From Escherichia coli (GTDB lineage: Bacteria; Pseudomonadota; Gammaproteobacteria; Enterobacterales; Enterobacteriaceae), in NCBI RefSeq assembly GCF_003334385.1, contig NZ_QOWN01000052.1: a stretch of 32,012 nucleotides of DNA. One strand, written 5' to 3'. Below, in pieces: positions 7,660-8,320 of this stretch (its first letter is position 1; each line of letters starts with the position of its first letter). The notes under the pieces are model-generated. The model ran no database searches. It was not told the origin of the DNA and saw nothing but the letters and a program-made list of their open reading frames with translations. Made by a program: the position numbers and the translations under genes.

Positions 7660-7672
7660 GCCGAAATTTGCT

Positions 7673-7725
7673 CGTATCTACAATGTAGATTGATATATAC
7701 TGTATCTACATATGATAGCGGTTTG
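7673..7725 (+). promoter_or_regulatory. mazEF promoter/operator region with palindromes
   Basis: ATCTACAATGTAGAT perfect palindrome at 7676..7690 followed by TGATATATACTGTATCTACATATGATAG repeats, just upstream of the mazE start; matches the autoregulatory operator arrangement described for mazEF. Confidence 0.5.
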
Positions 7726-7736
7726 AGGAAAGGGTT

Positions 7737-7985
7737 ATGATCCACAGTAGCGTAAAGCGTTGGGGAAATTCACCGGCGGTGCGGATCCCGGCTACGTTAA
7801 TGCAGGCGCTCAATCTGAATATTGATGATGAAGTGAAGATTGACCTGGTGGATGGCAAATTAATTATTGAGCCAGTGCGTAAAGAGCCCGTATTTACGCT
7901 TGCTGAACTGGTCAACGACATCACGCCGGAAAACCTCCACGAGAATATCGACTGGGGAGAGCCGAAAGATAAGGAAGTCTGGTAA
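7737..7985 (+). CDS. mazE: Antitoxin MazE (AbrB/SpoVT-type)
   Basis: 82 aa [30 protein letters not shown]...; stop TAA overlaps the mazF ATG (TAATG). Confidence 0.9.
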
Positions 7986-8320
7986 TGGTAAGCCGATACG
8001 TACCCGATATGGGCGATCTGATTTGGGTTGATTTTGACCCGACAAAAGGTAGCGAGCAAGCTGGACATCGTCCAGGTGTTGTCCTGAGTCCTTTCATGTA
8101 CAACAACAAAACAGGTATGTGTCTGTGTGTTCCTTGTACAACGCAATCAAAAGGATATCCGTTCGAAGTTGTTTTATCCGGTCAGGAACGTGATGGCGTA
8201 GCGTTAGCTGATCAGGTAAAAAGTATCGCCTGGCGGGCAAGAGGAGCAACGAAGAAAGGAACAGTTGCCCCAGAGGAATTACAACTCATTAAAGCCAAAA
8301 TTAACGTACTGATTGGGTAG
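7985..8320 (+). CDS. mazF: Endoribonuclease toxin MazF (PemK/MazF family)
   Basis: 111 aa [39 protein letters not shown]..., translationally coupled to mazE. Confidence 0.9.
   Translation: MVSRYVPDMGDLIWVDFDPTKGSEQAGHRPGVVLSPFMYNNKTGMCLCVPCTTQSKGYPFEVVLSGQERDGVALADQVKSIAWRARGATKKGTVAPEELQLIKAKINVLIG

Follow-up and report, generated by a model that had tools for sequence, protein, structure and literature searches.

The stretch of DNA analysed here (the window, 32,012 bp) is the entire draft contig QOWN01000052.1 of assembly GCA_003334385.1, and it carries the antitoxin gene mazE and the toxin gene mazF between relA and mazG. The features of the locus are listed below by position in the window.

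5425-7659, + strand: relA, GTP diphosphokinase, 744 aa, stop codon TAG at 7657-7659; identical to K-12 WP_000226815.1
7660-7736, + strand: relA-mazE spacer, 77 nt, with the mazEF promoter and operator; identical to K-12
7676-7690, unstranded: inverted repeat of the form 7+1+7, ATCTACA-A-TGTAGAT (ATCTACAATGTAGAT), left and middle arms of the predicted operator
7683-7711, unstranded: second pairing, ATGTAGAT (7683-7690) with ATCTACAT (7704-7711), 13 nt apart
7737-7985, + strand: mazE, antitoxin, 82 aa, identical to K-12 MazE; NF007312, with PF04014 on record
7985-8320, + strand: mazF, endoribonuclease toxin, 111 aa, A31G relative to K-12; NF007386, with PF02452 on record
8025-8099, − strand: promoter fragment of the antisense RNA aMEF, 75 nt, placed by mapping the oligonucleotides of PMC8749433 Data Set S1 onto the window
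8076, + strand: single-nucleotide difference from K-12, G for C, codon GCT to GGT, MazF A31G
8391-9182, + strand: mazG, nucleoside triphosphate pyrophosphohydrolase, 263 aa, NF007113; third gene of the operon
7659-8349, + strand: mazEF cassette, about 691 bp, a presence/absence polymorphism delimited by comparison with genome THO-006

The initial annotation had placed here an antitoxin of 82 aa and a toxin of 111 aa joined by a TAATG overlap, with mazG next, and all of these were found at the positions given for them. Base A7985 was common to the mazE stop codon TAA, as its last base, and the mazF start codon ATG, as its first (TAATG, TGGTAATGGTA). The antitoxin gene thus comes first, with the toxin gene immediately 3' and a one-base overlap, an arrangement that reads as translational coupling. 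A Shine-Dalgarno sequence (GAGGA, 7725-7729) was located 7 nt 5' of the mazE ATG, as in K-12. The end of mazF and the start of mazG were separated by 70 nt, and no terminator-like site was found on the + strand of this gap in a promoter and terminator scan of 7500-9450, which fits the description of mazG as part of the operon in PMC1626106, where the linkage to relA and autoregulation of the promoter P2 are also described. A 146-aa open reading frame on the − strand (7706-8146) spanned mazE and mazF, and has most likely arisen by chance.

The locus was compared with the K-12 MG1655 chromosome by DNA alignment. The region 6100-9900 was identical except for one base, 8076 (G for C). Over 75-31764 the identity was 99.77% with one gap, and only three differences (8076, 14561, and 19023) were present in 75-27978. 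The genes relA, mazE, mazF, and mazG were annotated by RefSeq at the matching K-12 positions, and the same genes are annotated in thousands of genomes. All three proteins encoded downstream of relA scored above the cut-offs of their NCBIfam equivalog models: MazE with 196.2 bits on NF007312 (cut-off 113, full length 1-82), MazF with 224.6 bits on NF007386 (cut-off 120, full length 1-111), and MazG with 370.1 bits on NF007113 (cut-off 208). The Pfam families on record for the MazE, MazF, and MazG proteins were PF04014, PF02452 (PemK_toxin), and PF03819, respectively.

The top PDB matches of the toxin were solved structures of E. coli MazF (3nfc, the 5ck9 group, and 1ub4), and in the 3nfc and 5ck9 alignments residue 31 was the sole mismatch. 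Residues E24, R29, and T52 were present in MazF, as seen in the PDB alignments, and occupied columns conserved among relatives. For E. coli MazF, R29 and T52 are reported in PMC10864209 to work at the scissile phosphate, and E24A is the usual inactive mutant (PMC5888573). The check for frameshifts and changes of key residues gave none, A31G not being among the scissile-phosphate contacts R29 and T52, and both the operator and the catalytic residues of MazF were intact relative to K-12.

On this evidence, the locus is almost certainly the chromosomal type II toxin-antitoxin operon mazEF (chpA) at its usual site between relA and mazG. The initial annotation had identified the module as mazEF, and the equivalog scores above cut-off, the identity to K-12, and the RefSeq annotation bear this out. 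It shares with the K-12 mazEF operon (chpAI/chpAK) the locus, gene order, MazE, operator, spacer, and mazG region, as well as 110 of the 111 residues of MazF, and differs from it by a single base (8076, C to G), which gives MazF A31G. The description of a known system was therefore also accurate, the sequence being that of K-12 but for A31G. Few toxin-antitoxin loci have been studied as much as E. coli mazEF, and the present copy, already known and essentially the K-12 reference, matters little in itself; what it adds is the rare, conservative A31G change and an explanation of the flanking insertion sequence ends.

Two related systems were considered for comparison. The paralogue chpBIK (ChpS/ChpB) shares the fold families and the order of antitoxin and toxin, but its NCBIfam scores were weak (34.6 and 52.4 bits), far under the cut-offs of 101 and 129 bits, and its locus is a different one; the assignment to chpB was rejected. 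The plasmid R100/R1 system pemIK (kis-kid) has the PemK/MazF fold and an RP[AV] motif in common with the toxin, and Kid was matched at E = 2e-8; unlike this mazEF, pemIK is plasmid-borne, and it is only distantly related. The operator and cleavage preference of pemIK also differ from those of mazEF.

The spacer between relA and mazE was examined for repeats. The arms of ATCTACAATGTAGAT (7676-7682 and 7684-7690) were 100% complementary around a central A. This element had been described as a perfect palindrome of 15 bp; it is present at 7676-7690 and its arms are perfect, but the whole is not, as one base is unpaired, and 'perfect' applies to the arms only because a sequence of odd length is not fully self-complementary. 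Further repeats, also claimed, were present in the form of a third arm (7704-7711) and a direct repeat, GTATCTACA (7674-7682 and 7702-7710). Hairpins with 7-nt arms occurred 18 times in the window, compared with 9.2 ± 2.9 in first-order Markov-chain simulations. A lone 7+1+7 hairpin is unremarkable by chance, and only the three-arm cluster is significant: this arrangement was observed once in the window, where 0.07 was expected from the simulations, and of the four matches to ATCTACA in the 32 kb, three lay inside 35 bp.

An 'alternating palindrome' was reportedly described for the mazEF promoter by Marianovsky et al. in 2001 (J Biol Chem). Passages of PMC5888573, PMC10893535, and PMC1626106 cite such an alternating palindrome, in which the middle arm pairs with either flank. 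The three arms of the window (7676-7682, 7684-7690, and 7704-7711) are this published alternating palindrome, and they form the predicted autoregulatory operator. In a consensus scan of 7500-9450, no canonical sigma-70 match was found over the palindrome, and a weak match (9/12) was located at 7712-7741. In the gfp fusions of PMC8749433 (Data Set S1), a 75-nt fragment corresponding to 7633-7707 served as the sense promoter of mazEF.

The working of the module may be outlined from published work on the locus. MazE together with MazF would bind the alternating palindrome and repress their own promoter. MazE, being identical to the K-12 protein, is expected to be labile, degraded by ClpAP and Lon, and paired with a stable toxin whose activity it would neutralise (PMC1626106, PMC5888573). 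When MazE synthesis stops, free MazF dimers would cut single-stranded RNA at ACA (PMC5888573), with R29 and T52 presumably acting at the scissile phosphate (PMC10864209). MazF may also cleave its own mRNA; this, like ACA cleavage and the involvement of ClpAP and Lon, is described in PMC5888573. There were 2 ACA triplets in mazE and 9 in mazF, all as in K-12, and the same numbers are given in PMC5888573 for cleavage by MazF of its own mRNA. The antisense RNA aMEF, with its start inside mazF, would in addition modulate expression (PMC8749433).

The allele at 8076 was searched for in other genomes. A 31-mer with the G allele, designed so that each 28-base word included the G, matched none of 5,426 complete E. 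coli genomes, and the control 31-mer with the C allele gave 3,044 matches among the same genomes. An 81-nt query centred on 8076 was found in 3,101 complete E. coli genomes, each with one mismatch. The exact A31G protein (P0121) was nevertheless public under OWD67437.1, HAH1515116.1, HAH9035664.1, and HAM4714871.1, on at least eight contigs, including an independent SRA-derived one (L004, SRR7819145). A one-off sequencing error at 8076 is unlikely, since the same protein was present under several accessions and on the SRR7819145 contig; A31G is therefore a genuine allele, though a rare one, and no private error.

Residue 31 is two positions past the catalytic R29, adjoining Arg29-Pro30, where strand beta2 begins. 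In 133 other sequences, comprising the listed close relatives (≥ 51% identity) and cluster members, the position was occupied by Ala (129), Val (2), Ser (1), or Thr (1). Among the 134 aligned close sequences, Gly31 was otherwise found only in P0121, i.e., the A31G MazF itself. In 150 diverse MazF representatives (approximately 37-97% identity), the counts at this position were 122 for Ala, 8 for Val, and 6 for Gly, and all six representatives with Gly31 read R-P-G-[LI]-V.

Judged from these comparisons, A31G is most likely a near-neutral rare variant in function. The toxin is probably still active, because Gly occurs in 6 of the 150 relatives. It was also considered that A31G attenuates or inactivates the module by affecting folding, RNA binding, or catalysis, giving a hypomorphic toxin that might, for instance, have been selected as relief from toxicity. 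The near-invariance of Ala in close orthologues (129/133), the lack of the allele in the 5,426 complete genomes, and the position of the residue next to R29 (PMC10864209) all speak for attenuation. However, Gly at the equivalent position in 6 of 150 diverse MazF proteins indicates that the fold tolerates it, mazE and the operator are unchanged with no second mutation, and several public assemblies and runs, independent of one another, contain the allele, so that attenuation is regarded as improbable. A weakened or otherwise altered toxin is likewise given a low probability, and the chance is small that A31G is a natural allele of altered behaviour in any of the forms considered, namely weaker toxicity, shifted RNA recognition, or a changed aMEF promoter. 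In that case, a small E. coli lineage would carry a naturally hypomorphic form of a much-debated toxin. With the near-neutral reading preferred, the substitution serves as a flag for work on this strain or on the structure and function of MazF.

The base at 8076 might alternatively act through RNA. The antisense RNA aMEF starts inside mazF and modulates expression, and its promoter is described in PMC8749433 as weak, poorly conserved, and non-canonical. The mutations made there map to bases 8032/8035/8038 and 8059/8062 of the window; from their order on the antisense strand, the former cluster would correspond to the -10 element and the latter to the -35 element. The only SNP of the mazEF region, 8076, lies inside the promoter fragment (8025-8099); read along the antisense strand, it precedes the nearest mutated base, 8062, by 14 nt. 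An effect of the change on aMEF transcription, and thereby on MazE and MazF levels, would be in line with this position, which is about where an UP element would sit, but 8076 is outside both mutated clusters and the promoter itself is weak, non-canonical, and poorly conserved (PMC8749433), and such an effect is very unlikely. The near-neutral protein variant remains the preferred reading of 8076.

Both ends of the window were formed by IS186/IS421: positions 1-75 were the last 75 nt (tail) of the element and 31936-32012 its first 77 nt (head), in the same orientation. The initial annotation had placed mazEF inside an IS-bracketed segment, and the IS186/IS421 termini are indeed present at both ends, but the bracket is no evidence of mobility. 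As the window spans a complete draft contig, and such contigs end at unresolved repeats, the IS186 tips are most simply the assembly break points of a short-read contig. Bases 1-18320 of contig QOWN01000052.1, the part compared, were identical to the window. The interior was collinear with the K-12 chromosome. The right IS186 site was shared with the complete genome 720632, in which a 10-bp target duplication (GGGTAAAACC) and then cas3 follow. On the left, the IS186 tail abutted gudD (84-1031) at the G-rich sequence GGGGTAAACG, and the first approximately 384 nt of gudD were removed or separated. IS186 favours G-rich targets, and the left copy resembles a simple insertion within gudD; the IS186-gudD junction was found as a single piece in none of the complete E. 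coli genomes listed. The bracket is thus best explained as what is expected from two chromosomal IS186 copies. The alternative, in which the IS186 ends delimit a 32-kb unit carrying mazEF that can be mobilised or has been rearranged (as a composite element, excised circle, or amplified unit), is barely tenable. A tail and a head in the same orientation would fit a pair of direct copies, or a single copy closing a circle, but short-read contigs such as this one normally stop in multi-copy IS elements, the interior is collinear with K-12, the right copy occupies an ancestral site in 720632, where it has a 10-bp duplication of its own and is followed by cas3, and the left copy looks like a simple gudD insertion at GGGGTAAACG. 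The IS-bracketed context is not to be read as mobility.

The distribution of mazEF among E. coli genomes was determined separately. The mazEF segment was present in 4,419 of the 5,426 complete genomes, and the arrangement relA-mazE-mazF-mazG in 4,416; the 1,007 genomes without the segment (approximately 19%) all had relA and mazG. In one mazEF-less genome, THO-006, relA was followed by 54 unrelated, hairpin-containing bases (L006 660-713), and homology resumed at position 8350 of the window, 41 nt before mazG.

The contigs that encode MazF orthologues with 66-83% identity gave four neighbourhoods outside E. coli. The mazEF genes were located beside cas3 and a higBA pair in Pseudescherichia, beside a transposase in Salmonella enterica, among phage and resolvase genes in Klebsiella aerogenes, and between metabolic genes on a fourth, enterobacterial contig. 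The first three are surroundings of a mobile or defence type. In none of these four neighbourhoods was linkage to relA or mazG found. The cassettes of Pseudescherichia, Salmonella enterica, and Klebsiella aerogenes encode MazF proteins 73-83% identical to that of the window, have overlapping or abutting genes in the same order, and share an operator of the ATCTACAnTGTAGAT type upstream of mazE; unlike the E. coli cassette, they have neither relA nor mazG next to them. The relA linkage therefore belongs to the E. coli insertion site and not to the cassette. Upstream of mazE, an identical ATCTACAATGTAGAT was present in Pseudescherichia, CTACATTGTAG and ATCTACAATGTATAT in Salmonella, and GTATCTACACTGTAGATAC and TACAGTGTAGATAC in K. 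aerogenes, and one half-site was kept in the fourth cassette. The motif regions were at L007 1675-1754, L008 801-880, L009 1679-1758, and L010 1679-1758, where the palindrome is often present twice in tandem. The motif thus moves together with the genes, in the manner expected of an antitoxin binding site, which it is predicted to be. The lack of the cassette in approximately 19% of the genomes and the movement of the operator motif with the cassette in other genera support a view of mazEF as a cassette of mobile type that was inserted, and not as part of an ancestral relA operon. This view is presumably already appreciated in the field.

Several further observations were made elsewhere in the window. 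In a whole-window Rfam scan, no match was found at mazEF, and the sole hit was sok (113 bits, 31620-31777), belonging to a hok/sok type I toxin-antitoxin locus at 31620-32012. The locus contained an intact 50-aa Hok open reading frame (31762-31914), directly followed by the IS186 head (31936-32012), as in 720632; K-12 departs from the window from 31765 on. After 27.9 kb with three differences, about 35 SNPs relative to K-12 were counted in cysJ and cysI (27979-30700), and this stretch matched B/REL606-type and ETEC-type genomes at 100%. The match of the SNP cluster to these genomes suggests a recombination breakpoint near 27979. That the window comes from a K-12 laboratory derivative was rejected, as the cysJ-cysI region and the hok/IS186 end match B/REL606-/ETEC-type genomes; it is the draft of another isolate. 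A 1-nt indel relative to K-12 was located near 30674, at the end of cysI or in the cysI-cysH spacer. A feature named 'CRISPR' (direct_repeat) was placed at 14669-15062, between queE and ygcE, by offset from the K-12 record, and the SNP at 14561 was just upstream of it.
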